Shown piece after piece: positions 3,304 through 47,706 of a DNA stretch of 64,000 nucleotides. The translations under genes and the position numbers were made by a program. The DNA comes from Podarcis cretensis (Eukaryota): assembly GCA_951804945.1 (NCBI GenBank), contig OX638155.1, positions 39,432,001 through 39,496,000 on the forward strand. The letters are read 5' to 3'. A model generated the notes under the pieces. That model saw only the letters and a list, made by a program, of their open reading frames with translations. It searched no databases and was not told the origin of the DNA. How positions within the stretch are numbered: the stretch's first letter is position 1; each line of letters opens with the position of its first letter.

Positions 3304-3417
3304 CACATGACCCAGAAGCTGTACGCTGGCTCCCTCGACCAATAAAGTGAGATGAGCGCCACAACCCCAGAGTCGGCCACGACTGGACCTAATGGTCAGG
3401 GGTCTCTTTACCTTTTT
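3304..3417 (+). mobile_element. Sauria SINE, 5'-truncated
   Basis: Near-identical to 498-615 (CACATGACCC...GAGATGAGCGCC...GGACCTAATGGTCAGGGGT) and ends in an ACCTTT tail. Confidence 0.88.
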
Positions 3418-20514: not shown

Positions 20515-20686
20515 CAGCATCAAGGCTGCTGGACACCCCCCCCCCATGGCACCTGGTTGGACGGCCACCGGGGGGGGCGTGAGCGCCAGCCAGGTGAGCT
20601 GGAGGCAGGGGGCTACGCCCCCTGCTATGGGCGGTGTTCAGGCTCCCGCCCACAACCACTCCCCTCTCTTTCAGGGAGGAGAGTCT
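20515..20686. mobile_element. Unclassified 172-bp GC-rich structured insertion
   Basis: Perfect 14-bp direct repeat TTGATTCACATCAG at 20501-20514 and 20687-20700. No tail, TIR or pol III boxes. Multiple stems. Confidence 0.75.
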
Positions 20687-21025
20687 TTGATTCACATCAG
20701 ATGCAAACAAGTCATGGGTATGGGGGGAAATCCTAGATGAGTCCAACAAACATGATACATTGTGGTGGTAGTGGTAGTTCTGTCTCTCTTTCCATACGCT
20801 GAACAAACTTTTGCTTCCCTTTAAGAGCATAAGAAGACACTGTCCATCTTGAAATAATTGAGAAGGAATTCCGAGAACACATTTGCTGTTCTGAACCTAA
20901 GCGTACTCTGAGGTAAATCCTAATAGTGCACACAGTGAACAGCATACACACAGCAAACCATGGAGCAATGCCATCCAGAGATTTGGGGCATGGTATTTAT
21001 TTGCTTTTATAACTACATGGTTATA

Positions 21026-21232
21026 CAGTCGTACCTTGCATCCTGAACACCTTGAAAGTCGAACGTTTGCAAACATTGTTTGTAACCCGAATGTCTGACG
21101 GGGCTTCCACAGCTTCTGATTGGCTGCAGGAGCTTCCTGCAGCCAATAAGAAGTTGGGCTTTGTTTTTGGAACTTTTTGGAAGTTGAACAGACTTCCAGA
21201 ATGGATTCCATTCAACTTCCAAGGTACAACTG
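21026..21232. mobile_element. Tc1/mariner MITE
   Basis: TA|CAGTCGTACCTTG...CAAGGTACAACTG|TA. Same family as 56346-56626 (shared GCTGCAGGA(A)GCT(T)CCTGCAGCCA palindromic core). Confidence 0.85.
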
Positions 21233-23260
21233 TATTGGTCTAAGCCATTCTAGGACCTTGTGGTGAAAGGTAAGTATGAAAACACATGAACAAACAAATA
21301 TGTGGATGACGGACACTCAACTCTGTTTTTCCTTTTCATCAAATGCAGGTGAAGTGGTGGAAGGTCAAAGCCAGCACTTTGAACCAAGATGCCATGAAGT
21401 TGGGTGCAGTGCACCCATACTTTAACTAATTAAAACGAATAGAGGGGGCAACAAGAAAACAGTAAATCTATTACTGCAAAGATGCAGTATTTTCTATATT
21501 AATGTGAACATGTGAAATAGCATTATACTGAGTTACATAGTTGGCCCATCTAGTCCAGTATTGTCTTCTCTGGCTGTATCCCCCTCCAAGGCAGGGATCT
21601 TTCCCCTTTCTACTACCTGAATTGCTGACTTGAGATACCAGGGATTTAACCTAAGATCTTCCACAAAAAGCATATGCTCTGCCACTGAGCTACTGGTAGC
21701 AGATCTCATCCCATTAATCCAAAAAAGAGCAATATTGTACCTTTGCATCAGACAATAGGCCTCTATGCTCACATAGCCAACAGGAGGATTCTTCACAATG
21801 ACTATAAATAAAGTAGAAAATGTGCAGAGGGAATCATACAGGCAGTTTAAAAGCAATGTGTGCTCTTCCCTCATAGCACCTCTAATTTCCTTCATAGGAC
21901 TTGATGTGTACCACATTAGTAGCACAATAATTGCATTGCACCTCACATTCTCCTGCTTTAACTCAATTTCTGAAAATTAACCCAGCTCCGATGGAAAAGT
22001 CATTTCCCATTTTCCTTCCCCTTGTCTTATTGAAACCTTCCCTAAATGAACTTCCTGAAGGATAAAATACTATTTTGCACTCTGGTTTCACTCTCTGTAC
22101 AGTTTGTTTTTTTTTTAAAAAAAATCTTCCATAGAAAAGTAAATTCAAGAATAATTTTTTTGACAAGAAAGAAATCAGACCTTATGCCTGAGAACAATTT
22201 AATCTGACAGCAGTGACACCCAGAAGTAGAAAATTGCACCAGTCGTTTTTTAATATGCTGACAAAAATTATTAGCTTTTGACAAATAACATGTTTAACAT
22301 TTATAAATGCAACTTCTAACCCATAGTGCAAGCGAGCTGCTCACACCTGCTGAAAGGAAACATTTTATATTAACTTCTAGAGCTGGTAGTCACAGGCTGA
22401 TTGTGACCCCATGCAGCAGAATATACTGGAGTAAAAGGCTGCATGTTTAACATTATCTACTTGCGAAAAACTCAGTGTAAGGACTCTAAAATATATGATG
22501 GCATCGATGCCAGCCTTTATATGTCAGGGATTCTGTAACTTCAGTCTAGTATCTTGGGTCTGAGGCTCACATGAGCTGAGCTGCAGTGGACCTTAAAGTA
22601 TGCAGGGTTGTACTTGAAGTAGCACTAAGTGTAGCATTCCATTGGCAAAAGAATTTCTTCTTGTGCAACAGAACTTCCCCATCTCATCTCCCTGCTGACC
22701 CTTATATCCGTACTTGGGGTTGCCCAAAGTTTCCAGAGCAGCTTTGGGGAGAACTTAATATGTGTGCAGGGAGAAGGACCAAGGTAGTTCCATGGCACAA
22801 GATCCAGCCTTTGCAGTAACAGGATAACACACTCCTTGGAAGCTGTCTCTGCCATTTCCTTGGCAGCTCCCAAGCCCCATGCTGCCTCTACAGCGACCTC
22901 TTGCTGGTCTCCTCCCACCCTTGTTCCCAATGTAAATCTTTATTCCCTCTTTGTTCCTGATGTAGATCTTTGCTCACCCCTTCTTCCCAGGCAGAGGGAA
23001 GCACCTTTTTGTGGTTCGCCTCAGGTGCCAAAATATATTAGGCCATGCCCTGCTGCCCCAGTGGAAAGAAGAGTTTTTGCCTCCCCACTTGTCCCAGTAG
23101 ATACTGTTTCCTGCCTTGCCCCCTGACACTCTTCTCCCCAGCTATTGGGATGTCTCCTTTGACACTTTTTGTTATCTTGATCACAGGGTCAGAGAGGCCT
23201 TGGATTGTAGCCTATGCTAGTCCAGAGTAGATCCATTGAAATTAATGAACACGGTTAGTC

Positions 23261-23537
23261 CGCTCACCCTCTCGGTTCGGTGGCATTGCGGGATGGCAGA
23301 GGCTCCTCCAAAGGCCCCAACTGGATGGGCAGTGGCAGCATAAGCCCATGCCACCTATAAGGAGCACCCAGGATTGGCAAATGGGTGTGCAGGTTTGGAT
23401 GCAGGTTGGGCCAGGGGGCAGAGCTTATAGATCAGGAAGGCTTCCCTCAGGTCCGTGCCTGGATCATTTAAGCAGCCCATACCTGGGCTCCTTACCTGGG
23501 TTTTCCCTCATCCAGTTCGTCATCGTATTCACTGTGG
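23261..23537. mobile_element. Unclassified GC-rich insertion splitting a palindromic MITE
   Basis: Flanks ~23200-23260 and ~23550-23590 join into the palindromic element seen intact at ~33685-33800 and ~60207-60317. Degenerate direct repeat GAACACGGTTAGTC (23247-23260) / GAACACAATTATC (23538-23550). Confidence 0.6.
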
Positions 23538-25227
23538 GAACACAATTATCTTAGGTCTATTGATTTCAGTGGGTTAGTTGGGTACAACCCCTTGGTCATG
23601 AAAGACTGGTGGTTGTGCATAAACTGATCAAGGGACTGAGGTCACACATACAGGGGCTTGGCTGATTCCTGTTTCTTATACTTCTGAAGCAATGAGGCAT
23701 CTGAATATGTGGCTTCAGGCCATTTTGTTTTGCAGTGTTGGAATACCAAACTTAGCTAATGAAGCTAAGATTGCCTGTTGCTTCTTCCTTGGTAGCTGCA
23801 TGTTCTCTTCAAAGCAAATGCCATTCATAACTGATTCATATTATGTGGAGACTGGTAGGTGTTTGAGAGCAAGATTGTAGAAATGTTAAAAGCCTCTTGG
23901 AAAGGAATGACATGCATGAGGGTTTGATGTGGAAAGAACCTAGATTATATACCTCATGAAAACATACCCAACTTTTAAAAATGTACATCATTACTACAGT
24001 TCCTTCTAACTGTGTGTATTAAAGAGAAAAAAGCACAGTCCTGACCCATCAAGTTTAGTGGACAAACTTCCACTGATTTTGGTGCAGTGAGGCTGGCACA
24101 CAGCTTGCTTTTTTATTAAAATAAGATTATATACACTGGATACATCATATGTGGAGGGTGGCATTGTTTGCTTAAGCTTTGATGCCAAAGCCAAACTCTC
24201 TGTAAACAGAGAGGTGCTTCCATTTCTGAAATGTCTGCTGCTTGTTGAATTACAAAAGTGCAATTATGCAAAACGGTGCTTCAGATTCATCCAGGCAATG
24301 TCTTTTTCTCCCTCTCCTTTACTTTAAGTTCAGAAGTAATATTGCTTGATGCTCCAAATCTACTGAACAGATTATTAAGCTAGCTCTAGGCATTGATGGC
24401 TCGAAAACTAATTTTACTGAGGCATCTGATATTTCACGTTCATTTTAAAAGGAGCAATAGAACAAATAAACACCATGCCAGATGTTCAGTGTCAAAGCAA
24501 CTGAGTTCTTTTCAGCTGAGCCTAGCACTTCTTGCAGGGCATCATGGGAGTTGACATCTCTTGCAGGGCAGCAGATGAAATCAGGTGTTGAGCACAGAGG
24601 GAGCACAATTTACTATAAACAGTTTTATCAGTCTCAGCAAAAAGTTTGTTTCATGAAGAAGAAAAAAATCTTCCTCCTTGCAAACAAAGATGTTAATAAC
24701 TATACAAGATAAATGCTTGCCCTTCTCTAGACATTAAGCCATTTTTTTGTGCAGGCTTTGCAGAATTTGTAAACTGAATTATAGAACAATTTGCTGTGTC
24801 TTTGATGTAATAACTTTAAAGATGCACTCAAAGGGTGCACAGATCTGCAGGGGAGACACAAACATGAACCAGTTTTAATTGGCAAACAGTAGAAGTGGTA
24901 TTCCAAGAAATACTGCTTTAGGTCTATCGGTCGTTTTCTTGGATTCATATCTCCATGGGCTATTGCCTAGAAGAGCTGACATAATCCCAAAGAATATAAT
25001 TGGAAGAACCTCTGCTAGACAGGCTGGAAGGAAGACCATGCTGGTAATCCAGGCATCCCAACAAAAGACAGTCTTGTCAGTTAATCCTAGCCATGTTTAC
25101 CCTGACATTAGTTTTATTCTTTTCAGTGGGATTTCCTGCCATACTGATATCATAAGGATTATAACCACTTTGCATTTCTGTAGCCATGGCAATCTTTTCT
25201 CATCCAGTTATGTTAAAAACCACCAAA

Positions 25228-25505
25228 CAAATGCTTTTTTCCCAAGAAGCAGGTGTCTTTTAATTTCGTGACTGCTGTCACCATCTGCAGTGATCATGGA
25301 ACCCAAGAAAGTAAAATCTCTCACTGCCTCCATTTCTTCCCCTTCTATTTGCCATGAGGTGATGAGACCAGTGGCCATGATCTTTGTTTTTTTGGTGTTG
25401 AGATTCAGACCATATTTTGTGCTCTCCTCTTTCACCCTCATTAAAAGGTTCTTTAATTCCTCCTCACTTTCTGCCATCAAGGTTGTGTCATCAGCATATC
25501 TGAGA
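25228..25505 (-). mobile_element. BovB (RTE clade) RT fragment
   Basis: Translates as LRYADDTTLMAESEEELKNLLMRVKEESTKYGLNLNTKKTKIMATG...DFTFLGSMITADGDSSHEIKRHLLLGKKA, the characteristic BovB RT region. No 3' tail. Confidence 0.92.
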
Positions 25506-26216
25506 CTTAAAAATATTGAGCATATTGCATCATACTATAGTAATTCATTTGAACCAGTGCAACTAATCTAGCAAAATGCTACTTAAGCTTGCTATTAAGA
25601 AACATGCTCCTCATTAGAGAACAAAGTTTGTTCAGTTTCCAAGGGAATTAAGAATTCAGCCTACTGTGTGACTCCCCTAGCATACACATTGGTTTTAATA
25701 AAGATCACTTTGAAAGAGCCTGTCAATGACTTGCCTGAGCCATAGTTTTCTCTATCCTTCAGATAACTCTGGTAACCTTGGAGCCACAGTGACTTCTGAT
25801 CTTTATTTAGAAGCTCATATCAGCCATTTAATTGAGGTGTCCTGCTACCGCCCCTGGAATCGAGCAGCTTGAGTCTTGTGTTCTATAGGCTATTTACTAA
25901 GGCATTAGTCCATGCTGTTTTGAAGGCATTTTTCCCCATTTCAAAAAACTATACCCAACTGCCTGTGGTTTCTCTGGCAAGGCCTGTTGCAGCATAGGAT
26001 TTCACAGGTTGATGTTTTTCATTCTTATTTTGCAGTTCCCTTTTGTAATTAGGCTTGTTAAAATGGCTTTTCACTCTAGTTAATATTTCTTCTAGAACAG
26101 TTAACTGGCACTTTACATCTACATTGCATGTGCTAAAATATTGTCAAATGCATAGGTAGCCATGACATATGTTTAAGTTTGTGGAATCCCTAGGCATTTT
26201 AAAACTGAAACCTTTA

Positions 26217-26221
<5 letters not shown>

Positions 26222-26258
<37 letters not shown>
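26222..26258. repeat. (AG)n microsatellite
   Basis: Read directly from the sequence. Confidence 0.95.
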
Positions 26259-26262
<4 letters not shown>

Positions 26263-26403
26263 AGAGCCTACACACTATGAAGTAATTTGAACTGGACCTA
26301 AACAATGTCTCAATTTACATTTTGTCAGTTTGAAGGGGGATTGATTTGTGTGTATGTGTGTGTGTGTACTTTCACGCAATGAAAGTACCCATTGTAAACC
26401 GAG

Positions 26404-26492
26404 CATAGCTGTCAACTTTCCCCCTTTTTAAGGGAAATTCCCTTATTCCAAATAGGATTCCTCACAAGAAAAGGGGAATGTTGACAGCTATG
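26404..26492. mobile_element. Tiny (89-bp) MITE, probably hAT
   Basis: Perfect 13-bp TIRs CATAGCTGTCAAC / GTTGACAGCTATG with degenerate 8-bp flanks AAACCGAG / AACCTGAG. Confidence 0.75.
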
Positions 26493-26924
26493 AACCTGAG
26501 TGTTAGAGTAAATGTGAGGTGGAAGTCAAGATCATCACTAATATCTAATCACTATTTACTATTCAGAATGAACACTGAAAAATGTGAACAGACAGCATTT
26601 GCTAACACAAATGTGAAGAAGACTCAAGAGATAATGAAATGGTGAAATGGTTCTATCTATTAAATAAAACAATAGAAGATCTGCAAACTAATTAACCAAA
26701 TTATGAAAGTATGGGCAGGTGGGTTTTTAATTCAAATCTAGAAGGGAAGCATCCCTCCAATCTCCTGGACATGTTAATAGCCACATTCCATCTTCCTCCT
26801 TGCTAAGCGAGCCTTGGGTACGTGAGCCCAACGTGTGAGCTCAAGCCCCACCATCCAGTGTTCACTCAGGTGCACATGTCAGGTCCAAAGGGCAACCCCA
26901 AGGACACCCTACCTACCTACTCGT

Positions 26925-27123
26925 AGGTGCTGCTGTGGGAAATGTCCAAAGTCCATTTCAGGGGCCTAATCTGGTCTGCTGGTTGGTTTAATCCAGCCCC
27001 TGTGGCAGTTTATTTCCTGGGGTAAAATCCCCAAAAAAGCTCAACAACTTTGGTTGGCCATCATGCATTGCATGTGCACTTCATCAAATCTGGCCCTCTT
27101 TGAAAAAAGTTTGGGCACCGCTA
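26925..27123. mobile_element. Degenerate hAT/Charlie-like MITE
   Basis: Right end CTGGCCCTCTTTGAAAAAAGTTTGGGCACCGCT is typical of Charlie-type non-autonomous elements. The left end is decayed. Confidence 0.5.
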
Positions 27124-29319
27124 CCTTAACCCAATAATAGCTTAGGATGCCTGTTAATGAAGTTCTTGAATTTCCTTTCTGCCTGTACTAAATACCAAAG
27201 ACCAAATAATTAACACACATCAAATGGCCAACCAGGGGAACCCAACAGTGTGGAATAGCAAAAAAGAGGTGTCCCAATGTCCAATCAGGGGCTCCTCAAA
27301 CAATTATTATTCAGCCCTCCAAAAGGCAAGTAGCAAAAATTCATACTGTAAAGGCAGGGAGTGAGGGGAGGACATTGCAAAGGAGGTGTTGGGGATGGAG
27401 ATAACCCACATAGCCAGTGAGATGCCCCTTCCAGTGGGGATCTGAAGCCCTTGTGCTCCCCAGATCTCCTCCCCTTTGGAAAAACCATGCTGAGCCTTCT
27501 CCATAAAGGGGGGATAGCAAACACACCACTGCTGGACAGAAGAAACAGCATTCTATGAAACAGATCCAGAACATTTGATATGCTTTCTAAGACAGCGAAT
27601 CTAAAGAAAATAATAAATAAAGCTTTCTTTGTTACATTTTTTCAATATCTTTTCCCCTCTTTTCGCCTTCTTAGGTTACCTTCCCAGTCATTGAGATTTT
27701 GGCTGTAAATTCATTGCCATACGAAATAAGGAATTCCTACATAACAATGTTATTCAATCCCAAGATATGAAATAAGTTTCCTCTAAGAAGAGTCAAAGTT
27801 ATTTAGGCAAACTACGGAATATGAATTATTCCCCTGGTACTCCTGGTTATTTTCTTTTCATAATAGTCAATTGAGTTCTGCCTCTAATTCATTTGTTTCT
27901 AAAATGATGTAGAAAACTAATTAGAATTATAATTAGATAAGTTATTATTTCAATACTGTTTTAAGATCCTTTGACCAATGGTAGCATGAAGTGGTCTAAA
28001 GATAGAGAAAAGGATTACTAAATTAAACAGAGAGAAGGGAGATCTAAGGCTAAGTATCATGCTGACAGATACTTTAGCATCTCGACTAGTATCAGAAGCT
28101 AGTTCATCCCAAAAGTTGCAGCTTTGTCATGATAGATTAAGCAGAAACAGGGTTTTCGGTATCAAAAATATTTTGGACAGAAATAAGTCTTTTGTGCTGT
28201 GCTGTCAGCTCTTTTTTAGAATACAAGAATAAAGGAGTCTTGGATCGGGTCAAAAAGAGAGAGAAAAGGTGAAACTTTTCCATATTGAAAAGCTCACATG
28301 TTGTTTTTCTGAATTTAGCTTGACCTTGCAACTCTAGCAGTTAGGAGGGGGAGAAATCTCATTTCAGTCTGTAAACAGAATGAATTTAAACTGGATGCAC
28401 TTCACTAAAGATACCATGGCACATCAAGGTGTGTATTTGTGACTCACTTCTCTGCTCAGAAGAGCCACTCAATTTGAGATGTCTCTCACGCACAAATGCT
28501 CACAGAACACCCTTACACGTACACAAGCGCACTGTATTCCCCAATAAGCTGTTGCTCATTTCTGCATATCTTTATTTTCTTTGGGGCTGAAAAAAATGAG
28601 TGTTATTGAAAATAATGTTTCCCCACTGTACAACTTGTGAGTCACATCAATAGAAAATGGCCAAAACCTCTCATGTTGGTGACATTTAAAGGAGTGATTT
28701 GCTCTTAGCATTCCCCATGGGCTACCTTGCTATAATTTCATGACCCTCCATCAAAAGACCTTATCACTTTGTCTCTACCATTGAGAATAGCATTCTCTCA
28801 CATAAAACGTAGCTGAACAAAGCTAGCAAGGGGCCTGAAGGCATGATAAATGTAGAGCATTCTTAAATATTTAAAGTTCAAAGCCACATTTTCATTCTTG
28901 GCTTCGAGCATACTCCTTTACGGTTGCCAGTTTTGCATTTTCTTCATATAGTATAACACTAGCCCTATGCATCAGAACCAACTGAAACAAAAGCATAAAA
29001 CACACATACAAACATGGAACTCTATATTAGCTAATTGATCATCACATCAAATGATTATTATTGAAATAAGTTTCACAGCACAGAACTGAAACAAAATTTG
29101 GCAGAGCTTCGAGAACTATTCAGCTGCCTCCATCGGGAGCCTACCTTAGAAGAAGCAAGACTTCTCTCTGAAATTAAAGATAGTCCTCAAAAGCTGAGGA
29201 CCGAAGCAGGTAATCACATACCACATGGAAGTGCTGAGATAAGGAGCAGAAATCTCCTTCTCCTTAGACAAATGTATAGTAATTGAAATTTTGAAGCAAT
29301 TAATATAGCAGAAGTAGCC

Positions 29320-29435
29320 AACAGTGCCTTCCAATTGTTGGACTCCCATCAGCCCAGGTCAACACAGTCAGTGGTCAGGGATAATGGAAGTTGTAGTCCA
29401 GCTGCATTTGGAGGGTACCACATTGGCCATGGATG
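29320..29435. mobile_element. Common squamate palindromic MITE (ACTCCCATCAGCCC...GGGAGTTGTAGTCC family)
   Basis: Related copies at ~10990-11050, ~39835-39965, ~41010-41110 and ~43865-43990. Confidence 0.6.
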
Positions 29436-29443
29436 CTGTACAG

Positions 29444-29651
29444 CAGAACTTTCCAAACTTTTCATATTGGTGACACACTTTTTAGACACGCATCATTTCG
29501 CGAAACACTGTAATGTAGTTTTATTAGCAAACCGGAGGTTAAACTAACTCCTTTCCAGCCTTGAGAGGAGCACAGGGAGAATTTGTGTGACACACCGGCA
29601 CACTGCAACTGGCACACTAACGTGTCACCACACACAGTTTGGAAAGCTCTA
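29444..29651. mobile_element. hAT MITE
   Basis: TIRs CAGAACTTTCCAAACT / AGTTTGGAAAGCTCTA and a perfect 8-bp TSD CTGTACAG at 29436-29443 and 29652-29659. Confidence 0.88.
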
Positions 29652-30049
29652 CTGTACAGTATGTGATGTTGGGATACAATGGATTCTTCTCAAATGCAAA
29701 CTAGGACTGATTTTATCCTTTTCAGGTTAACACCAAATAGGACCGTGGTGAACTGACTAGGGGGTTCAAACCCAGTCCCACAAACCTTTCCTCAGTTTGG
29801 AGATATCTGCCAGTTTTATCTGTATCTTTCCTCTTTCTAAATAGCTGGCAACACAGATATATGCATGTGCAGCACCTCTCTTCATTAGAAGTAAGCTATG
29901 CCATCCAAACTATTGATTTGCCAAGGTGTATGTATTCATTCATTCATTCATTTATTCATTTGGTAGTTTTTGAACCAGGCAAGTACAATGCTGTACTATG
30001 ACATGTCAATTTTGAAAGAACAAGCTTCTTTCCACCATGCTTATGTAAG

Positions 30050-30880
30050 GTTGTTGTTTTTTCACTTTACTTCCCTTGTTTCTTCTTTGGATCCCAGTCC
30101 TAAGACATCATTGTTGGGATCTCTTTATCCATCATTGACCTGAACAACATAGTCCACAAATCAATCCACTTGACACATTTATTTGGTTGGTGGTGTGCTT
30201 TCTTCTGAGCATCTTTGCAACATCATATGTAGGAAATCTCTGGAACCTGCATGCGTTTTCCACAGAACATCCCATAGAACTACTGTAAGATGGATGAAGC
30301 TGTGATTCATGTATCCAGCAGACAGCATCCCTATTTCAGAAACCATTTTTATTCTTAGTATAGATATATTTTCGTCATTACCAGCACATCTATTCCAGAT
30401 ATATATATCTAATGTAGACAGAGAGATAAATGCACTCTTGGCTTTTAACAAGCTGTGTCTAAAACAGACATTCCACTCTTTAGTTTTGTTCTTTTCTTGT
30501 TGTATTTCTTCATCTATAGCTTATTTTTAGCTTATTTTTTCCCTTTACATACCCCCTCACTCTTCAAGCTTCCCTGTCTCAAAAAGAGTTGCATTTCCTT
30601 GAACCTATCCACTAAAACCTTTCACCTGTGCATCTATTAAATTTCTTGTTAACCTTTGCTATCTTTCTAGTATTGTAACCTGCTGAGCTGTGCACCTTTT
30701 TCAGCTTCCCCTGAAAACTATTTTCTCTTCTTTCTTCCTTTGAGCTTCCTGACCTCAAATTTTTATCTTCCTTTCTCTTCTCCTTTAATAGCTTGTGTAG
30801 ACCTTTCTCCTCACTTTCACACCTATCTCTCCCATCTTTTCCAAGAATGAATTCAGAAATCTTTGGCTGGATAGAACTGC
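30050..30880 (-). mobile_element. Ancient, highly decayed L1-like ORF2 3' fragment
   Basis: A-rich minus strand. Translated LDIYIWNR...GSRDFLHMMLQRC parallels LDYDRWAK...EGDFHHMWWAC in the C-terminus of the young L1 ORF2 in this window. Confidence 0.45.
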
Positions 30881-30950
30881 TGTCTGATCCGCTCAGCTGC
30901 TTCCCACACAAGAACAGAAGAAGATACCTATTGCAGATTAATTTGATATA

Positions 30951-30994
30951 CAGCAATCCCTACTGCCCTTGGCAGCAATCCCTACTGCCCTTGG
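30951..30994. repeat. 22-bp perfect tandem duplication
   Basis: CAGCAATCCCTACTGCCCTTGG x2. Confidence 0.9.
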
Positions 30995-31547: not shown

Positions 31548-31914
31548 GTTAAAGGACCCCTGTACAGTTAAGTTCTGTTGAATTCAGGTATAGGGTGCGG
31601 CGTTCATCTCCATTTTCAGGTCGAAGGAGCCAGTGTTTGTCTGCAGACAGCTTTCCCGTGTCATGTGGCCAGCATAACTGAATTGTTTCTGGCACAATGG
31701 GACACCGTGACGGAAGCCAGAGTGCATAGGAACACCATTTACCTTCCCGCTGCAGCGGTACCTATTTATCTACTCACGTTGGTATGCTTTCAAACTGATA
31801 GGTTGGCAGGAGCTTGGGCAGAGCAATGGGAGCTCACCCAGTCGCATGGATTTGAACTGCCAACCTTATGATCGGCAAGCCCAAGAGGCTTGACGGTTTA
31901 GACCATAGTGCCAA
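31548..31914 (-). mobile_element. Sauria SINE (older subfamily)
   Basis: Reverse-complement core GGTACCTATTTATCTACT and similarity to 10480-10856. 10-bp TSD GCTGCCAAAA at 31538-31547 and 31915-31924. Confidence 0.88.
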
Positions 31915-33679
31915 GCTGCCAAAAAAGGTAGTGTGACTCAAAACACAATTTTAAAGGCTTGTTTTTCCTCTGCCATGCTTAGACCAATTTAGCGGCCAGT
32001 ATCACTGCTGCTGAGCAGAGTTTGGATTTCATGTAACTTTACTTACACTGCCTTGCTCTGTGTCAGCTTGTTGTGTATAGGACTGTTCTCTAAATGTCTT
32101 AATTTGGTAGTAAGATTTAAAGTAGTGTTCTTTGGGCCAGCAAACATCATCATCAGCAACAACAACAAAAACAATAGGTTATTCTCCCGGTAAAAACTCC
32201 TCCATGAACAAATAGCATGCTAGCATCATCCAACAGGCACTTTTCCGTAATACACTATTGAGCCTTGCCTTCATATTCACTTTTGTCATGTTAAAGTCAG
32301 CTTGAGATTACATTGAAAATTCCATGTGGTGAATGTTTCTTATGAATGCAGCTGTGCCGTAACAGCTGATGTTTACTATGCCAGAGAACAGGCATCAACA
32401 CTCCCTAATACGGTAAATACCAGCTGTCACTATGGAGGGTATGTTCATAAGAAATAATCACCAGGAAATATTGATACTAAAATCACGTGCAAATGATTCC
32501 AGCATGTCAAAGGTAAATAGAGAATTGGAGACTTGGCCACTGAATTTGTCTCATGACTTAAATCAGAACAGGGGAAAGAGATTATGGGCATGTATACTTA
32601 CAAGTTATACTTGAATGCACCAAGCTGCCCAAACCTTTTGACATCTAAACTTGTCTTTTAGCTGTCTAAAATGACATAAATTAATTTGCCTGTCAGGAGG
32701 CTGTTCAAACTTCTAACGGATCAAACAAGGGACCAACAAATTAATATACATGAACAAAGGGAAATTAAAGAAGAGAGACTGCTTTTTGTACCTGTAGTTA
32801 TCACATCCAGAGCTGAACTTACAAACGCCACTCTAAGATATGGAAAAGAGATGGGGCTTTGGGAATTCATTCAGCATAAAACTATTTATATTTTTATAGG
32901 ATGGGAAAGGGTTCTTGCAGGTTTATTTCCACATCACAGAATACAAGAAAGGTCATGAAAAAATGAATAAGCATACTGCATTAGAAGTACAAAACATTGT
33001 ACTTTTTATGAGTCTCCTAATTATCAAACATATTAAAAGAGTTTTAGTACCACGAGAGAAGGAGAAAAACTCCACTCCATCCATTTTCTGCATGCCACAC
33101 ATTATTTCATACAGCTCTATCAGGTTTTCCCCCCCTTACTCAACATTTTCCTAAAGTAAAAAGCCCCATATCATGTAGCTTTTACTCACAGCACTATATT
33201 TAAATAAAAACAACAACACCATACTTCTGGAATGCATATAAGGACTGAATGGATTCATTTGAAAGTACTAATACTGAAAAATACAATATTCACATTGAGT
33301 AGTAATCTAATTTAGCTTTGCATATCCTCAGAAAGAGGCATTATATGGTAAGGCAAATGACGTCTTTTCAACTTGCAAAAACCATTTTCAAAAAAACCCT
33401 TTTCCCATTTTAAACAAAGCAATTTCCTCGGTGCTTCCATTTCTAGGACGCAGTTTATAATTGTTTTGTGCTCATCTTATTTATTTATCTAGCTCATTGC
33501 CGTTTCTCCAAATTCCTCCTTAATCACATTTAAAGCCTATTTTGTTAAAACAAATCCTTGCTTTATCAAGACCCTTACAAATAACACAAAATTGCTCCAA
33601 GTTATATAGCAGAGCTTGCAGTTTTCTTCACAGATGAAAGCCATAATTCATATTTCACCCTGGCTAGCCACACATAATT

Positions 33680-33800
33680 AGCTGTATCCAATGTTAGTCC
33701 TACTCAGAATAGATCCACTGAAATTAATGGCTGTGACTGGCTTAATCCCATTAATTTCAATGGTCTTATTCTGAGCAGGATTTAGTTGAATACAATCCAT
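33680..33800. mobile_element. Palindromic MITE-like repeat
   Basis: Self-complementary arms TGTATCCAA...CTCAGAATAGA...TGAAATTAATGG / CCATTAATTTCA...TATTCTGAG...TTGAATACA. Another copy at ~60207-60317. Confidence 0.7.
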
Positions 33801-36800
33801 ATGGAGGAATTAAACATGCTCTTCCAATTGTCCCACCAGCGCAATTTCAGCTATCCTGATGAAATGATCTCCCCATGCATGCTGTTTTAGGGATTCTCCA
33901 GACATGGGTGTCTGGGAGAAAGAGGGAGAAAGTCCCATTGCACTAGCAGGACTCATTGCACTGGTCTCCATTAGTGCACCTACTTAGTTGAAACTGGGCC
34001 CATTATTTCCAGAATGTCTCTTCAGGGCTACTAGCTTCTGTGTGTGTTCACTGGGGAAACCAGGATTTAGAAAATGCCTTCAACCTCCATGTTATTCTCA
34101 AGAACGTTGAACTTGAACTGCTTCCAGGACGCATCCTCTTTTTCATGGGTAGAGTCATCATAGTAATCCATAGTTATAAGCAGAAGTCGGCAAATGTCTC
34201 CTCTTTTTTGCTCTTAAAAATATGGCAGCCCTGGATAAGGTTCTCCTGATATGAGGGGTAGTCTTTAATTTGTTTCTCTTTATTTATCTGCCTAACAAGG
34301 AAGCTGTGTGTCTTGTTTAAGGCTGGAGACAGATCAGGGTAAATGATGGGATTTATTTTCAAAAAGAGGAGAGAGTATGCCCGTCATTTTGTATTTCTTT
34401 GTCACAGCACTCCTGAAGCCTGCAGAGTGAATAGGAGGGCCTAACGCAGTCTGCCTGCTCTGGTATGCTACAGGGTTTCATTCTAGCTTCTAGATTCAGA
34501 ATAGGGATTCACAGACTTATATGAGGACTGTGTGATGGATCTGGCATGAAGGGGATCGTGAGTTGTGTGGGTGGATGGGCAGAGACAGGGATTCATCCCC
34601 TGAACATGTACGTCTACACCATCCTTCAAATCAGTCCTCAAAGCCTAACTATTCTATGGGACCTTTGGGTTATTCCCTTAGGTGCCAGTCCTACATGCAC
34701 GTACCTGAAAGAAAGTCCCAGTGAACTCAGTGAACCTTCTCTTCAGTAGACATATATTTGATCACTCTGTGAATCCTCATGTGTAGCCTTTAGGTTTTTG
34801 GTCACATTCATCACTCCCCATTGCCATTGTCCATTGTCTCTCTGCACTCTGGTCCTTCTTGCAGGCTTCCCATAGGAATCTGGCTGGCCGCTGCGAAAGT
34901 AGGGTGCTTGCCCAGATGAGCCTTTTGTTAGGATATTGATGTTCCATTTCACCTAAACAATGTGTGGAGCTATTGTATGTCACATGCCTGTTTACATTCC
35001 AGCACAGCTTGCTGGGAACTTCCATTTGTGTATAGCTTTTGCCTTATGCTCCTTGCTCTTGGACATGAAAAAGAGAAGACATGTTTTCTTTGTCCTGATC
35101 TATGCTGAATAAACTGCTTGTAAATATGCTTTACATATGCCTCTGTCCGCCTTTCCATCACGAAGAGTTTGGTATCTCTGCTGGCTTGCGTGCTCAGCTT
35201 CTGAAAGGCTTCTGAAGCTCTGAGTCACTGATTGATGCAGAACCGAGGACTGGAGTTCGACCGGCAACTGTCCGGTGGGCTGGAGCCAGCTGGGGGTCTT
35301 CCAGTTGCCCCCATTCCCTTGGACGCATCCCAGCACCTTTCTCCTGATCCAGCAGAGCCTTTTGTGTGTCTTTATGGGTGCAAGGACTTGTTTTCTCTTG
35401 TGTCGCTCTGTAAGGCATTGTATATACATGATGCTAATAACTAATAGCAAAATGAGAACATCTCTTGACTCCATTTCTAGTGACTCTGAGTCTGCTGGCG
35501 GTGCTTCTATTTTAACATCTCCATTCCCTTTTGTTGGAGCCTGTTAGCAGGGCACACATTGCCATTGCTCTCATAGAAAAGTGAAAAATAGCATTGCTGC
35601 AATAAAGCCCTGGCTACAATTGGGACGAGTGGGAGAGATCAGCAAACATGAGACAAAGGGAATCCTGACAGATATTCAAAGCCAGAATGAACTACCTCCT
35701 GTAGATCAGACTACAATTAGCAGGAGCAGAACTAATGAACCACACAAAGCATGCTGGTGATCTCTCTTTCCTACCCTACAACATTTGGATACATAAACAA
35801 ACCGTCCCCATAGCAAGAGTGTAAAAAGAGAGTCCCCTCCGCCAGCCTATTACCATATGGTGTCATACATCCTTGTTTCTCAAGAGAGTAGCAGTGTGGC
35901 AGCAATGTTACATTTCTAAATAATACATCAAAGCAGGGCTTGTCATTTATGGCCATTATTAAGCCTCTGAGTAGACAAGTTGCATCTCTATTTTCTTATT
36001 AATTTAGAATCCCTACAGCCATCATAGGTTGCAAGGTACACAAGGAAGGGGCAGAAGGGGGGAGGTCTACACAAGGGAACGTGTCAGGTGTGAAGAATCC
36101 GTTGGGCACAATCTCCAAAACAAAACAAAGAGGTTCAGTGGGATGTCGAGGTAGATAGGAAAGGAATCATCTTGCCTGTTATTATAATGAGCTATGCCTT
36201 AGCTGTCAGGATAACTAATGCAAACGATGGGGAACATAAGTGCATCGACTGCATTCATGCCATCACTTTATAGAAAGTGAAAAGCATGTCACACAATGTC
36301 AGACAAAAACAAATAAGGGGAATGAACCTATACAAATGCCAGTCACTGAGGGAAAGAAGTATTGTTTTCTTAAAAAATAACTAGGATGGAAGAAAAAGGA
36401 AGGACCTATAATTACAGAGCTTTTTGTGGTTTTGGTTACCTACGTCATTCAAGGACAATGTAATAATATTATTCTGGGTAGGTTAATTATTTAGGAGGAT
36501 ACTGTCTAAATTGTTTAGATTATTCTTCATGCTGTTACAATGATGCTACTGATTTAAAGTGCAATTCTATCCATTCCCAATGCTAATGGTGGGAAGATTA
36601 GGATGGTATGTAGTCTCATCTCCACTGGTGGAGAGAAGTGCTGCAGGAGAGTGATTCTCCAGCCATGGTAGGCAGTAAAGGTCCCTGGAATGGGGTGTTT
36701 GGGGGAGAGGCCAAGACACGGCTGGATTGAAAGTCCTGTGGTTCCTGCAAGTGGACCTAAATCCAAATTGATTTCAGGAGAAACAAAGCTCAACTTACTT

Positions 36801-37769
36801 AGTCTGAGTCCAACCTTCTGTGCCTAAACAGCTTCATGCTGGGCTGAAACCAAGTGGGAAGAGAGAGTGCTAGGAAAACACCACACCAGCTGAATTTCTG
36901 CCTGTTATTGGTCTCAGTTTGGCAAGAAAAGGTGACAACGGTGAGACTACATGTTCCAAAATGGTTTTCTTCAGTATGAATTCTGCAGCAGTATGTGTTG
37001 ACGTGCACACTTCAACTAGCTGGAAGAGTAATTCACCTTTAGAGTTTTGACAAAATAGCCTTCAAATAGCACCACTGACTATTTAAAAAGACATTGCCTT
37101 TGTACATGCAAAGAAATTGTGTGGTTCTGATGTGTAAATATGCAGAGGATCACTTTTGAGAGCTCCTGTATTAACTCCCTTCTTGGAATTCAGGTGCTAA
37201 TGGAACACAAACTCTATATTGTTACAGTCAGCAGTAAATTTGATAATACTGTGCTTTATATTCAGGCTATTTCTAGTGTTCAGTTAATTTATCTTGGCTG
37301 CCAGACAGGTTGACTAATTAACAGATGTTCAGGTAGTAAAATATTCAAATTCCAAGCATTAAATAAAATTGCTTTCAAATATTCAACAAAACCATCAAAA
37401 CCGTCAAGGGAGAAGCAGGGGAACAGCCAAGGTTATATGCAGTTTCGTGAGAGAGAAATTGGGCTGATATTATAGTGCATTTGAATGGATTAGTCTACAG
37501 TCAAGTTACAGTACTTGTAAATATGCCAGAGCATTGTCAGAGAGGGAAACAAGGAACAGTAAAAGTATGAGAATATGATTTAATACTTCTCTATTTTCTT
37601 TATTGGTTCAGAAACAAGTGTTAGAAGCTAAGCAATTGGTTTCCCACAGGGTTCCATTTTGTTCATCATAACTATATGATACCACTAGGAGACGTCATTG
37701 TAAGATTTTGAATGAAGTGATATCAGTATGTTGATTTGCTGGCCCTCATCCAGCCCATTGTCCCCTCCA

Positions 37770-38400
37770 GGCACCTGCTCAATGCCTGCCGGTTGAAGGC
37801 CAGCAAATTGAAATGGTATTCAGACAAGATGGGGTAACATGTGTGCCAGGTGCATGAGCTCATGAAGTGAAGAGTCAACCATTCGGGGGTGTGGGACTGT
37901 ACATTCCTGAGAAAAGCAGGTCATATGTTTGGGGTGCTCCTTGATCCAGCATTTCCATGAGTCCCAGGTGGCCTCAGTGATTAGGAGTGCCTACTTCTGG
38001 CTTTGGCTAGGACACACTTCCTGGAACAAGATGACTTGGACAGCAGCCATGTTTTGGTAACCTCCAGACTGGACTATTGCAATGCACAATACATGGGGCT
38101 TCCTTTGAAGATGTTTTCGAAGCTGCAGCTAGTGCAAAATGCAGTAACTAGACTGTTGAGTGGCACAGCTGGTAAGTCTCATTTTGTCCCAGATCTCTGA
38201 GAAATGCACTTGTTCCTATTAGCAGGAGAGGTATTTTTGATGTTGCAACCCTCAGGGAACTGAGTGACAGTAGTGTGTGAGAGAGACTCTTCTGTGGTGG
38301 CCCCCAAAGTTTTTAATACCCTGCCTTGGATGCATGCCTGGTCCCAACATTGGGAATTTTCAGGCAACATGTAAGGTGTCTAGCTTTGTACAGAATTTGG
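37770..38400 (+). mobile_element. L2 ORF2 C-terminal fragment
   Basis: HVLVTSRLDYCNAQYMGLPLKMFSKLQLVQNAVTRLLSG matches the L2 SRLDYCN...LQLVQNAAARL motif. A downstream FSVVAP-like segment is present. Confidence 0.85.
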
Positions 38401-40027
38401 AGGATGTGCAATGTTTCATTACTTTCTATGTATGATTTCATTGGTTGGCTGCTGTTTTGAAGCTGGATCTTGATTGCTGTCTATTGAAGCTGTTACAAAC
38501 CCATCTTGCTTATGGGAAGTACCACCAAATGTTACTGCAAAATGATGAGTACAAGTCCAAAACCACTTGATGACCACAAAAGAACTTTATTTTGCTTTGC
38601 ATCTTCAATAACACAACTTCATGACAACTTGCCCTATGGAGTAATCATCTAGATCATTGTCATGTAAAAATGTGTGGTCCAGTAGGAGATAAAGACATGT
38701 AAAATTGACTTTTTTGGTCCACTAGAGTGAACTTGCCATAGCAAATTTCATTCTTTGTTCTGGTACACATCCAACAATAGCAGCATTCATCTCAATTTGC
38801 ACTGTCACAACAGTGAGAAGGTTTGGGCCTGCTGATGTATTTGTGTCTAAGAATTATTTATAGCCTGTTGCTGAAATAGCATTATTTTTCAAAATGGGTA
38901 AGATGATGTTGCCCCCACTTTTCTTAGATGATGGATGGTGAAACAAACAGGGGAGGTTGGAAATGCATGAACATCAAGCATTTTAGCATTACAGTGATAT
39001 CCACAGTGGAGGTTCGACTCCATTTTTTAAAACAATATGAACTAATATTAATGGTACTTACAGTGAACATGTAGAATAGCTTTCAGTGATTCAGAATTGC
39101 TGCTCTGTACCCACCATCGTGTGGAAATTATTATTGCAATGGCAGTATGCGGATAACATACTAATGTTTCCAGATCCAAACTCTGGGGGGAGAATATTTT
39201 CGAAAGCTTCATAGAAGGGTAATTATTCTTTCCAAACACTGCAGCACTTTCTGTGATGGAAAAAGCTGCACCTGATCAATATCTTTTCTACACTACTCAT
39301 AAAGGTGCAGGAGCCTTCTCAAGTTCTGGATCTGATGGCATCAGAAATTTTGTCACTCCATATTCCTAGACCTGAATGATTCAAAGTCGCCCTTCTGCAC
39401 TGTTTCAGACATTCAGCTGTTGATGTAATGAAGATTTTCTAGCATATATTTAATGGAGGCAGTTAGCTGATGTTTCACTGATATAGTAGGCCTTCTGCTA
39501 TTGACCAGTGGCTTATGGTTTTCAAGTATAGGACTGCACCCTTAATTTCCTAAGAAAATTTAATCTTGTACATCCTATAAACTGCTATTTTTAGTTGTAT
39601 TAAATATCCTGGAAAGGACTCTAAGTAGAAGCTATCTTTAGAATACTTACAGCAGGTATAAATCTAGTACAGAGCAATAGATAGTGCATCCAGAACTTCA
39701 AAAAGTATAAAAGTTTAAAAACGTTGACAGTTGACTCAAATGCCTCTATGAGATCTACAAGCTATTTGTTACTTAGTAAGCACAAGATATAGATAGACTT
39801 GATAGCTGCACTATATCCAGGATATTTACTAAAACTGGCATGAGAAACCTGTGGCTCTCTTGAGGTTGTTGGACTACAACTCCTGTCACGCCGAACCACA
39901 GGGCACACTGGCTGGGCCTGGTAAGAGCTAGAGTCCAACAACCCCAGGTTCCCCATCTCTGCTCTACAGAAACAAATCCAAAGTTGAAGGGAAACTGCAT
40001 TGTTGAAAGAAGCCATGGAAAGGACAG

Positions 40028-40091
40028 AAGGAAGGAAGGAAGGAAGGAAGGAAGGAAGGAAGGAAGGAAGGAAGGAAGGAAGGAAGGAAGG
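40028..40091. repeat. (GGAA)n microsatellite
   Basis: Read directly from the sequence. Confidence 0.95.
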
Positions 40092-40622
40092 ATAAATAGT
40101 AACATCAGTACAAAGTTCAGGAAAACAGTGGCTTTATTCCTGATTTATTTTGATTTGATTTATTTAAATGCATATGTTTTATTGTGGAGTGGGTACTTTT
40201 AGGGCAGAGGATAAGGAAGGCTATGCTTAGCCAATCTCCAAGTAGTGTTCAGGAGTTAATTTAAGGTGACGTGGGAGATGAGCTACTAAGTACTAGTGTC
40301 AAGGAGTTAATTAGGTTCAACATCCTAAGGGAAAACAAATTACTAGAAGTGTCAGAGTGGCACTAATTTTTATAAGTGATGGATTCAATAAAGTGTATGG
40401 AAAAGACAAAGTAGCCATATAGGGTTTTTTAAAAAGTCATAACAAACGCATAATCTTTCCATTGGTAATGCCCATAGCACTTCCGAATCAACTGACTAGC
40501 TTTCAGGAGATATGAACGCAGCTCAGCTCTTGATCACCAGAATGAGGACTAATGGAAATGTTTGCTAATACAAAATAAAAGACTGCAAATCCCATTTCCT
40601 CTTTCTCCCTTTTCCCCTGCAG

Positions 40623-40894
40623 ATTGGAGAGATACCGCTTTCAATACAACTACACTTTTACCCAGAAAACACCCAGAGCAGAAATTGCTAGATGTCGCTG
40701 TTCAAAGTGCTATTGATTTGTCAGCGGAGTAAACGGATCTTTCCGGAATGATGGTACAAAGACAACATCAAACATTTAGCTTTCCTTGTGAATCATGCTG
40801 GTCTGTGTAGTCATACTTCTTCTAAGACCAGTTATGTTCCACTGATATAATACATACAATCTATCATTACTGATACACCCCAAATTCAAATGAG
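40623..40894 (+). other. Candidate exon (probably non-coding or stop-containing)
   Basis: Strong acceptor TTTCCTCTTTCTCCCTTTTCCCCTGCAG (AG 40621-40622) and consensus donor GAG|GTGAGT (40895) in repeat-free sequence. All three frames contain stops. Confidence 0.35.
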
Positions 40895-41400
40895 GTGAGT
40901 ATATTTCTTTTCTAGAGAGTAGCTGCAGAGATTTTCACTGTAATAAGTTTAATAACTACCTTCATATCACTTTATCAATTCATGCAGTATAAAGGGGGGG
41001 ATGTTTCTATACTGCCATTTCCATCATCCCTGACCATGAATATGCTAGCTGGGGCTGATGGGAGTTGGAGTCCAGTGATGTCTGGAAAGCCACAGGTTCT
41101 CCATCCCTGTTGTGTAATAACTCAGGGAAAGTCTGAAAGGATCCATCAGTAGCTCACAGCCCACTGAAGATAAGGCTTCCACAGTTCAAAACTGGAATTG
41201 CAACAGGGGCGGGTGGGTTCATGGATGAAAACAATGGATAATGGTACACTTATTCTATGTTGGGTGTTGTTACTCAGCAATCCACCATTGTGCCACTCCA
41301 GGGGGCACCAGCCAACAACCCTCTCTCTCAGCTGAACTGAGCCATCCGCAGTCTGGCTTCGCATGTTCTAGGCTAAATCACACAAAGTAACAGAGCTTCA

Positions 41401-41779
41401 GGGGACGCAGGTGGCGCTGTGGGTAAAAGCCTCAGCGCCTAGGGCTTACCGATCGAAAGGTGGGCGGTTCGAATCCCTGCAGCGGGGTGCACTCCCGTCG
41501 TTCGGTCCCAGCGCCTGCCAACCTAGCAGTTCGAAAGCACCCTCGGGTGCAAGTAGATAAATAGGGACCGCTTACTAGCGGGAAGGTAAACGGCGTTTCC
41601 GTGTGCGGCTCTGGCTCTGGCTCTGGCTCTGGCCAGAGCAGCGATGTCACGCTGGCCACGTGACCCGGAAGTGTCTCCGGACAGCGCTGGCCCCTGGCCT
41701 CTTAAGTGAGATGGGCGCACAACCCCAGAGTCTGTCAAGACTGGCCCGTACGGGCAGGGGTACCTTTACCTTTACCTTT
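41401..41779 (+). mobile_element. Sauria SINE, young CpG-rich subfamily
   Basis: Intact head and B-box GGTTCGAATCC, internal (GGCTCT)n expansion and (ACCTTT)n tail. Perfect 13-bp TSD TAACAGAGCTTCA at 41388-41400 and 41780-41792. Confidence 0.95.
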
Positions 41780-42635
41780 TAACAGAGCTTCATCTCTCTG
41801 CTGGATTGCTGAGGAAAATAGGCCAAATAAGGCTAACACCACACTTATATAGGTCAATGCAAGCCCTGCTCTGATCAGCCACACTGTGACTGTGCCTCCG
41901 CCTCAAACTCCAAAGGGTGGAAGTTTTCAGGCTTCATCCCACTGGTGCACATGGAAAAGTGGGATTCTGAAAAGCAGTAATGTCATCAGATGTAGTATCT
42001 GATAATTTTCTATATACATTACCTACCAATTATTTGCTGGGTGAGAAATGTAATAAATCATTTGTTTGTGATTGCTGTCTAATTGGGCCACATAGACTAC
42101 TTCTTCAATAAAATGCAAATGCATGGCATACTGTGTTTGATCGAAACTACCAAAAAAAAAAAGCAAAACCAGCTTCTAATCATTGAACTTAGTTAGAGGC
42201 AGAGTTCCTCTCCCCTTTTTTGCATTGCTATAAATGAGCACAAGAAAAAGAAATTCACAATAAGAACAGCAGGAAATCCACTAAAACACCACAATGACTG
42301 CAAGCGTGCTTATCTGTACTATTACTATGGGAATATTTTCCTTTGTATGTAGTTGAAACTGCTCATTTATCTCAGCAATCTCAGTCAGCAGAGCTCATTT
42401 TGAAGTTCTTCATGCTATGATGTGTTAACATATTGTCATCTCTTATACTGCTTGAACAGTATTTAGGCCAAGAGATGTGCTGATTTGTTAATGAATTCAT
42501 TTTCTCAACCTCTAAACTTGGTTTCTTGTTAAGTATCATGTTAAGTATAATGACTTGAGCACAGACAATGAATGTCACAAAATAACACATGTTTTTCCTC
42601 TGATGTGTGCTGCCATTTTAAGGGTCTGTCTTATT

Positions 42636-42636
<1 letters not shown>

Positions 42637-42669
<33 letters not shown>
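42637..42669. repeat. (TTAG)n microsatellite
   Basis: Read directly from the sequence. Confidence 0.9.
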
Positions 42670-42670
<1 letters not shown>

Positions 42671-42896
42671 ATCCATCAATAAAATCAATAACATCAATCA
42701 GTGACTTACTTATGTAGGTTCCTTATGTAAGTACTTTGCTTAGCCTATGTAAACAGGGAACCATTGTTCATAGATGGTTGCATTTGTGACTTTGGATGAT
42801 GCCTTTGATAGAATAGTTTTATTAGCCCAGTGTTCTCAGAACAGTTCTTTGGGTAGGAGGGAGCTTAAGTTGTAGCAACATTCCTGAAATCAGAAT

Positions 42897-43757
42897 TGCG
42901 TGGACAGGCGGAGTCCCCAGATCCCATGCGGTCCCCCCATCATGTGGAATAACAACTCAAGACAACGTGCTATGGGATTAAATTGGCCACAACTTTATTA
43001 AATTTCAAATGTGGGTAGACCTTGGCTCAGGCATTGGGCGTTCTCCCTCCCCAGTCCCCAGCCGGGGACCTAGGGAGCATCAGGGTTATCCAGTGTGGGG
43101 GGGGATGGGCCGGCTCTGGAGAACATATGTTCAAGCAGAGATAGCCGCCCCCGTTACGCCGCCGCCGCAGGGGAGAGCAATGACGACCTTTCGGCGTACG
43201 GCCAAAGCCTCCCTTCATAAAACCCCTTTAACGGGAAACCCTGGTATCGCCGCCGCAAAGAGGAAGATGGACTAAAGGATTCCGCCCAAGGCCTGATACC
43301 GCCAAAGTTGTGACGTTTTGCTACGGGAAAGGCGAAACCTGCCAATGTAGGGAAATTCCTTTCCGGCCCTTTAACAGCGACCTTAACGTAGCAGCGCCCG
43401 CATACCTGTGAAGAAAAGTTAACCTGCAAAACCTGTGAAGAAAAGTTAACCTGCAAAATAAGACATTAACTGAGGGTGGGTAGGGTGGGAGAAGCTCTGG
43501 AGCCAAGTGAGGATTCCCAGGTAAGATCCTCCCTCTATTGTGTGGGCAGGTAATCCCTCCCCTACCTGGCCTGGTCTCCTTGGCAACGCTTCCCCCAGGT
43601 GGGATTGGACAACTGGCTGAGGTAGGCGGAGACCTTCAGGTATCCCACCTGAGGGAAGGCAAAGCCAAGCCTATGCTGTTGGAGCCGCTCCAGATCTAGG
43701 GGCTGCACGCGTCCACGCAAAGGGCGCCCCCCCCCCCGTTTTAAGCGGGAGCGGTCA
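42897..43757 (-). mobile_element. GC/CpG-rich LTR-like element, unclassified
   Basis: TG...CA unit 42897-43719 with 10-bp inverted ends TTGCGTGGAC (42896-42905) / GTCCACGCAA (43711-43720). Minus-strand AATAAA (42994-42999) lies ~100 bp from the 3' end, and a PPT-like AAAACG(n) tract lies just upstream on the minus strand. 27-bp tandem duplication at 43404-43457. No TSD found. Confidence 0.6.
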
Positions 43758-47545: not shown

Positions 47546-47706
47546 NNNNNNNNNNNNNNNNNNNNNNNNNNNNNNNNNNNNNNNNNNNNNNNNNNNNNNN
47601 NNNNNNNNNNNNNNNNNNNNNNNNNNNNNNNNNNNNNNNNNNNNNNNNNNNNNNNNNNNNNNNNNNNNNNNNNNNNNNNNNNNNNNNNNNNNNNNNNNNN
47701 NNNNNN
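47546..47706. other. Assembly gap (161 N)
   Basis: Run of N. Confidence 1.

Follow-up and report, generated by a model that had tools for sequence, protein, structure and literature searches.

Ngaro elements are retrotransposons that carry a tyrosine recombinase (YR). For the hydrolase-bearing type, for example Xenopus DIRS-53_XT, split repeats in the order A1-ORFs-B1-A2-B2 (ORF, open reading frame) and the gene order gag, reverse transcriptase (RT), YR and SGNH have been defined (PMC9210276), and the recombinases of this group form no target duplication (PMC4157794). The integration of YR retrotransposons is an open question: for DIRS-1 of Dictyostelium the cDNA is single-stranded and antisense, and a study from 2020 states that no experiments have addressed the specificity of the recombinase and that the junction of the circle was not amplifiable (PMC7192593). 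The attC site of integrons is a hairpin with an unpaired central spacer and recombines at a conserved AAC (PMC5027507); it does so in folded form, by one strand exchange and replicative resolution (PMC3458562, PMC5027507). Here we analyzed a window of 64,000 nucleotides from Podarcis cretensis (GenBank assembly GCA_951804945.1, contig OX638155.1, positions 39,432,001 to 39,496,000, forward strand), which contains three GC-rich inserts referred to as E1, E2 and E3. E1 and E3 are A-repeat ends (left ends) of Ngaro elements and E2, judging by shared end motifs, probably is one too. The junction between the B and A repeats of these elements folds into a hairpin that is kept by shape rather than sequence.

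Identity of the three inserts

An initial annotation, made from the letters of the window, had suggested that the inserts may be diverged members of one undescribed squamate element class. The common class was borne out, but it is a known one, the Ngaro superfamily, to which the elements add new members. The minus strand carries E1 and E3 and the plus strand E2; features, in window coordinates, are as follows:

20514..20688, minus strand: E1, from a young Ngaro family: the opening ~173 nt of an A repeat that is truncated on the 3' side; junction AA at 20687-20688
20650..20686, minus strand: A half of the E1 junction hairpin, with the inner hairpin at 20656-20686 and, at 20650-20655, the arm TTGTGG, which is the complement of CCACAA, the B end in this family
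20501..20514, plus strand: host duplication of E1, copy at the broken end, 14 bp, overlapping the element by 1 nt
20687..20700, plus strand: host duplication of E1, copy at the normal AA junction
20536..20598, strand unassigned: crossing blocks of E1 and CCAGGTGAG, over putative promoter boxes, which by their consensus motifs are probably opposite GC boxes and CCAAT-like boxes
23258..23522, plus strand: E2, A repeat of an old family (copies 70-80% alike), cut off on its 3' side
23258..23292, plus strand: A half of the E2 junction hairpin, with the arm TTGCGGG (23286-23292) and the family B end CCYGCAA
23247..23257, plus strand: probable old host duplication at the start of E2; partner at 23538-23548, 9/11 identical
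42896..43759, minus strand: E3, a complete solo A-spacer-B unit of 864 bp with AA at both junctions and no target duplication
43499..43759, minus strand: A repeat of E3, containing the blocks and the motif of the initial annotation, together with a putative CCAAT box and motifs that resemble TATA and initiator elements
43711..43757, minus strand: A half of the E3 junction hairpin; its arm TTGCGTGGAC at 43711-43720 and the B end (42896-42905) are complementary over 10 bp
42896..43304, minus strand: B repeat of E3, with AATAAAGTTGTGGCC at 42985-42999
43404..43458: 27-bp perfect tandem duplication within the E3 spacer

A first look gave 1176 candidates for E1, 108 for E2 and 1811 for E3. Exact start motifs occurred 737 (E1) and 1188 (E3) times, and the B-end pattern had 799 matches and no control matches. 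The initial annotation had also suggested an autonomous partner with RT and tyrosine recombinase, and this was found in copies of the E1 and E3 families. Long E1 copies encode a YR, and the layout A1-ORFs-B1-A2-spacer-B2 is present in L120, L121, L126, L130, L132 and L083+L089 of the E1 family and, with both split repeats, in L164 of the E3 family. The RT and YR ORFs lie on one strand with a gag-like ORF upstream (Pfam matches to RVT_1, to Phage_integrase at or below the cutoff and, weakly, to zf-CCCH), and the recombinase possesses the motif HSFRIGAA and the terminal tyrosine. The E1 subfamily copies L131 and L132 contain a gag zinc finger, RT and YR, and L131 also SGNH; the SGNH ORF follows YR (Lipase_GDSL_2, E=3.8e-5 and 1.7e-3, both below the cutoff). 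E3 copies matched SGNH, RT and YR by tblastn, and the E3 unit follows RT/YR/SGNH sequence in three of nine fetched stretches. Methyltransferase and RNase H had no match in a Pfam scan of 12 ORFs, for which no dedicated profiles were used; of the two domains, Ngaro elements are expected to have RNase H but not methyltransferase. Repeat layout and gene order are thus like those of the DIRS-53_XT type (PMC9210276), solo AB units are also known from the Ngaro of Cafeteria (PMC8547959), and complete Ngaro copies likewise lack a target duplication (PMC4157794). DIRS-1 is also a YR retrotransposon with a short shared junction sequence, but has inverted repeats, an ICR (internal complementary region) and a trinucleotide junction instead of split direct repeats (PMC7192593). 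E3 itself is most simply explained as a solo unit left by A1 x A2 recombination.

E2 is the least certain member. It shares the start layout, spacer motifs and B end with the Ngaro families, and solo units of its family carry the spacer and B-end motifs. What tells against its inclusion is that the family yielded neither a coding copy nor a natural B1|A2 junction, with no protein match in 25 loci, 6 longer stretches and 5 pattern matches; because no coding copy turned up, we only infer its membership. The inserts had further been described as dissimilar in primary sequence, which is true of their A parts, whereas the E1 and E3 units align in the spacer and B (E=5e-7 and 2e-4).

Other identities were rejected. 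A comparison of an A copy with five long E1 stretches gave only direct repeats of the element ends, unlike a DIRS1-like element. A long or short interspersed element (LINE or SINE) does not fit, as a target duplication together with a 3' tail is not present on all copies, nor does the solo long terminal repeat of an LTR retrotransposon or endogenous retrovirus, as there is no 4-6-bp duplication and the E3 flanks differ except for AA in 15 copies with both ends. The RT of L083 is not the element's own but that of an inserted endonuclease-bearing LINE, whose intact ORF of 1035 aa (endonuclease-RT) occupies L083:2373-5480 on the minus strand. Two further E1-family copies (L081:6266-7110 and L133:6982-8775) are non-autonomous, lack RT-length ORFs and have a 93-bp tandem array after the recombinase. 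L081, L084 and L085 have the form A-internal-B without a second unit, likely a product of B1 x B2 recombination. The motif AATAAAGTTGTGGCC is near-invariant at the B ends of very different families, partly by selection, and has the form AATAAACGGCCAC in distant elements; it includes a third TTGTGG arm, for which the B end would be a possible pairing partner in the E1 family.

The hairpin at the B|A junction

In all natural B1|A2 junctions, CRCAA at the end of B is paired with TTGYG, which is located 26-36 nt into A. The outer stem formed in this way extends as far as the crossover AA; a small loop without pairing follows, and then the inner hairpin, which begins at +3 to +5. Computed folding energies of natural B1|A2 junctions were -26 to -39 kcal/mol, compared with -2 to -23 kcal/mol for B2|flank controls. 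The expectation of the initial annotation that structure rather than sequence is conserved is right, but the structure is this nested hairpin, which it had not listed.

For a covariation test, 177 A starts were reduced to 32 clusters and 12 lineages. Homology and the AA, rather than folding, defined the starts (hand-written motifs served to place 18 of the 177), and the cluster representative L262 was replaced as its start was misplaced. Watson-Crick pairing of the inner stem from +3 to +9 was 0.65 in cognate versus 0.44 in permuted combinations of the 32 clusters, and 0.70 versus 0.45 for the 12 lineages; neither was reached in 20,000 permutations, but these counts are not probabilities because the clusters share ancestry. 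Position +1 is unpaired in 29/32 clusters, +6 is paired in 31/32 with four pair types, and +7 is T.G in 22/32. In an independent count over 7 distinct natural junctions, the paired share was 91.7% and 6 of the 12 pairs had changed on both sides.

The same fold was found in distant elements from metagenomes (40 loci, recombinase about 30% identical; some of the contigs are collapsed repeats). All three families with a readable junction show it, with GCATAAA/TTTATGC arms and z from -2.6 to -5.8, and in a fourth family the arms are visible by eye. Five of six distant B|flank controls were unfolded (z +0.3 to +1.2), and the sixth folds inside its flank. What is retained in the B|A hairpin is its shape and not its sequence, and it reappears in distant elements whose sequence at this site is unrelated. 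A loose search for the junction pattern returned mostly noise, and most matches of another junction search were B2|flank.

In the computed folds the Ngaro junction has several traits of attC, namely two stems around an unpaired spacer, covariation, and a crossover at the stem edge. The attC site is likewise an imperfect two-stem hairpin with an unpaired central spacer and a variable terminal loop, has its crossover within a motif that contains AA and lies where a stem ends, is free in sequence while pairing is kept, and shares only a tiny homology with its partner site. The two differ in that Ngaro is a eukaryotic retroelement whose target is any host AA instead of attI. The extrahelical bases that select one strand in attC have at most a possible counterpart in the T.G at +7 and in an A at -6 that is bulged in some lineages. 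Single-strand exchange is proven for attC and presumed for Ngaro, where the scars described below are at most an indirect sign of one exchange with resolution by replication; similarly, DIRS-1 has a single-stranded cDNA intermediate, whereas a single-stranded Ngaro copy is postulated here.

The hairpin could alternatively act in RNA, during read-through of the B1 poly(A) signal, packaging, or a strand jump in reverse transcription. In the transcript it would form only at B1|A2, wobble pairs are biased toward the sense strand (G.T 36 versus A.C 16, the former corresponding to G.U), sense-strand RNA energies were lower in 6/6 natural junctions, and the A repeats overall fold better than shuffles in several families, although not in E3 (z about +1). 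A role in RNA would leave unexplained that in both squamate and distant elements the end of the outer stem coincides with the crossover AA, next to the unpaired +1, and it does not account for the scars described below. We regard it as unlikely.

Targets, scars and integration

Elements and targets share only AA, which was seen at 27/27 and 25/25 left and at 15/15 and 20/20 right junctions, both ends having been located in only part of the copies. The flanking direct repeats of 13-14 bp that had been noted for two of the three inserts are an exact 14-bp repeat in E1, whereas that of E2 is only degenerate (9/11); two other E2 copies have clearer host duplications, and E3 has no flanking repeat of at least 6 bp at its true ends. 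Such repeats turned out to be scars of broken copies and not a feature of normal insertion. Among 60 position-ordered starts, 10 copies were truncated, and 6/10 had a duplication of upstream host DNA (13, 13, 20, 46, 65 and 148 bp) that starts at the break and ends at AA. A duplication of 10 bp or more was present in 0/47 of the other copies; of 50 controls three A2 copies had been left out, L375 and L376 were classed as complete, and a repeat away from the break in L035 was not counted. The breaks show 1-8 nt of overlap or a short filler, and all six in E3 are inside A (positions 91-261). Two B-anchored copies bear mirror scars of 296 and 68 bp at their B ends.

With their fixed end, variable end and duplications of 13-20 bp, truncated copies such as E1 and E2 resemble LINE products and might have arisen by target-primed reverse transcription, the template being an antisense RNA with its end at the start of A. 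They have no tail, however, the duplications reach 46, 65 and 148 bp, B ends carry mirror scars, and the junction retains the family's AA, which makes such an origin quite improbable.

On balance we lean toward the reading that the B|A hairpin is a folded single-stranded site on which the Ngaro recombinase acts, and that integration occurs by one strand exchange at AA. It is suggested by analogy, because attC recombines folded with one exchange and the cDNA of DIRS-1 is single-stranded. A single-stranded Ngaro DNA copy would fold at B|A, the recombinase would bind the two stems and exchange one strand at AA, and host replication or repair would complete the insertion. If copying were aborted, the loose end might rejoin host DNA slightly before the insertion point, giving a duplication of 13-300 bp as in E1 and probably E2. 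Whether Ngaro elements from lizards to distant lineages all integrate as folded single-stranded DNA, with B|A as the eukaryotic counterpart of attC, one exchange at AA, host replication, and one-ended insertions with host duplications as failure products, is a broader proposal to which we give slightly less than even credence.

The standard model for the order is instead a recombinase that acts on a double-stranded circle (PMC7192593). On that model the inverted arms would serve as boxes for protein, possibly in the form of an extruded cruciform, and aborted Holliday junctions would account for the scars. Folding energies of the DNA are nearly equal between the strands, and inverted boxes also covary. 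Classical tyrosine-recombinase sites have a spacer of 6-8 bp, far below the 26-36 nt between the outer arms of the Ngaro junction; furthermore, the inner stems change sequence freely yet keep their pairs, and targets share AA only. A double-stranded substrate therefore appears rather unlikely to us.

Several points weigh against integration through a folded single strand. The main difficulty is that the wobble bias favours the sense strand, while the single-stranded intermediate of DIRS-1 is antisense, and for the authors of PMC7192593 a double-stranded circle is still the preferred candidate for the final substrate. The outer pairs -1 to -3 are invariant, and pair -6 is mismatched in 19/26 cases (bulged or mismatched A). 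Duplications among the truncated position-ordered copies are found in 5/6 for E3 but 1/4 for E1, and in a score-ranked E1 set the only one among five truncated copies is that of the window itself. The mechanism, proposed from computed folds, sequence comparison and analogy with attC, seems to us slightly more likely than not.

Neither the covarying B|A hairpin nor truncated copies with host duplications of 13-300 bp are mentioned in the available descriptions of Ngaro, and the word 'hairpin' is absent from the main text of PMC9210276, PMC8547959 and PMC4157794. The junction hairpin and the scars were not described in the literature searched, which did not include supplements or the founding reviews (that of 2004 by Goodwin and Poulter; that of 2015 by Poulter and Butler), nor in the accessible portions of PMC9210276, PMC8547959, PMC6681497, PMC3783388, PMC13465315, PMC4157794 and one preprint. 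A known family has an apparently undescribed and testable integration signal. The site measures 50 nt and its fold is defined; compensatory variants occur in nature and some families are young, so that oligonucleotides and one protein would be enough for a test. If the mechanism is true, single-strand recombination of the kind known from integrons takes place in animal genomes too, insertion on the basis of two homologous bases would be explained, and a source of local host duplications would be identified.

The crossing blocks and other features of the window

The initial annotation had interpreted the inserts as sharing interleaved, pseudoknot-like complementary blocks and a CAGGTRAG motif similar to a 5' splice site. 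Most of these blocks are present. In E1, CACCTGG (20550)/CCAGGTG (20590) crosses poly-C/poly-G (20536-45/20570-77), and E3 has three mutually crossing helices of 7-10 bp; the piece delimited as 43561-43657, however, lies inside the 864-bp unit 42896-43759. In E2, GGTGGCAT/ATGCCACC and CTATAAG/CTTATAG pair, whereas GGCCCCAAC/GTTGGGCC does so only with a bulge. All three CAGGTRAG-type motifs and both preceding TGAGG were confirmed in place.

Crossing helices are common by chance. In 300 dinucleotide shuffles per region, at least one crossing pair of helices of at least 7 bp was found in 34% (E1), 47% (E2) and 53% (A repeat of E3) of the shuffles. The number of crossing helices gave p = 0.013 for E1, inflated by sliding poly-C/G registers, p = 0.13 for E2 and p = 0.21 for the E3 A repeat. 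Only the 97-nt piece of E3, as originally drawn, was matched by 0/300 shuffles. In nested-only ensembles, computed with a program that forms no pseudoknots, each region of E1 and E3 is dominated by a single helix, the crossing ones being near 0.

Helices were also counted copy by copy, leaving out the poly-C/G helix and two hairpins of E1 and the nested controls (mis-registered). CACCTGG/CCAGGTG of E1 is intact in 51/52 copies and the three helices of E3 in 28/39, 28/38 and 32/35, with no two-sided changes in either family, and in the sister lineage of E3 two of the three helices are without their 3' partners. Compensation in the poly-C/G helix of E1 was unconfirmed under a fixed register, its core CACGCCC/GGGCGTG being near-invariant. 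The crossing helices of E2 are intact in only 1/17, 1/16 and 3/22 copies. In two of them many cells (18 and 15) differ on both sides from the copy in the window, which we attribute to CpG decay and one lineage change; CTATAAG/CTTATAG may nevertheless be real, since it differs on both sides from most copies, and this speaks against dismissing all blocks. As a shared conserved architecture the crossing blocks did not hold up.

The CAGGTRAG motif is antisense to the element in all three inserts and is located at about +89 in the E1 lineage and at +229 to +247 in E2 and E3. With 6/32 end clusters and two different positions it is lineage-specific and not class-wide. No RNA run on record contains the stretch. 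Four raw RNA runs had 105, 64, 16 and 11 reads on E3, from both strands and with neither joints nor start or end peaks, a depth too shallow to decide whether the motif is used as a splice donor. No Rfam match pointed to a ribozyme similar to that of hepatitis delta virus (HDV) or to any other known one, as the only matches in the window at gathering score are two tRNA-like ones outside the inserts.

That the blocks and the motif form a conserved functional unit is largely refuted and in our view highly improbable, even when the 97-nt piece of E3, the p value and well-kept helix of E1, the two-sided differences of E2 and the similar motif position in E2 and E3 are credited to it. They are outweighed by the missing two-sided changes in E1 and E3, the partners absent from the sister lineage, the broken helices of E2, the restricted motif and the lack of an Rfam match. 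The A repeats carry what we take to be CCAAT, GC, TATA-like and initiator-like motifs. Opposite copies of such promoter motifs would yield complementary blocks by themselves, and the crossing blocks are probably by-products of repeated, oppositely oriented motifs within nested hairpins and mostly incidental. The idea of pseudoknots with a splice motif has in itself little to offer.

Elsewhere in the window, a run of N (161 bases) occupies 47546-47706. A GC-rich element at 59440-59760 matches the A-start profile weakly (E=0.36) and has no BLAST match to Ngaro units. The tRNA-like Rfam matches at 50199-50271 and 61512-61571 are probably SINE heads or tRNA pseudogenes. Another dispersed repeat is present at 41402-41781, 60558-60923 and 259-616, with weaker pieces at 3304-3415, 10570-10849 and 31715-31913; it resembles the squamate Sauria SINE and is also inserted in the Ngaro units L144 and L032.

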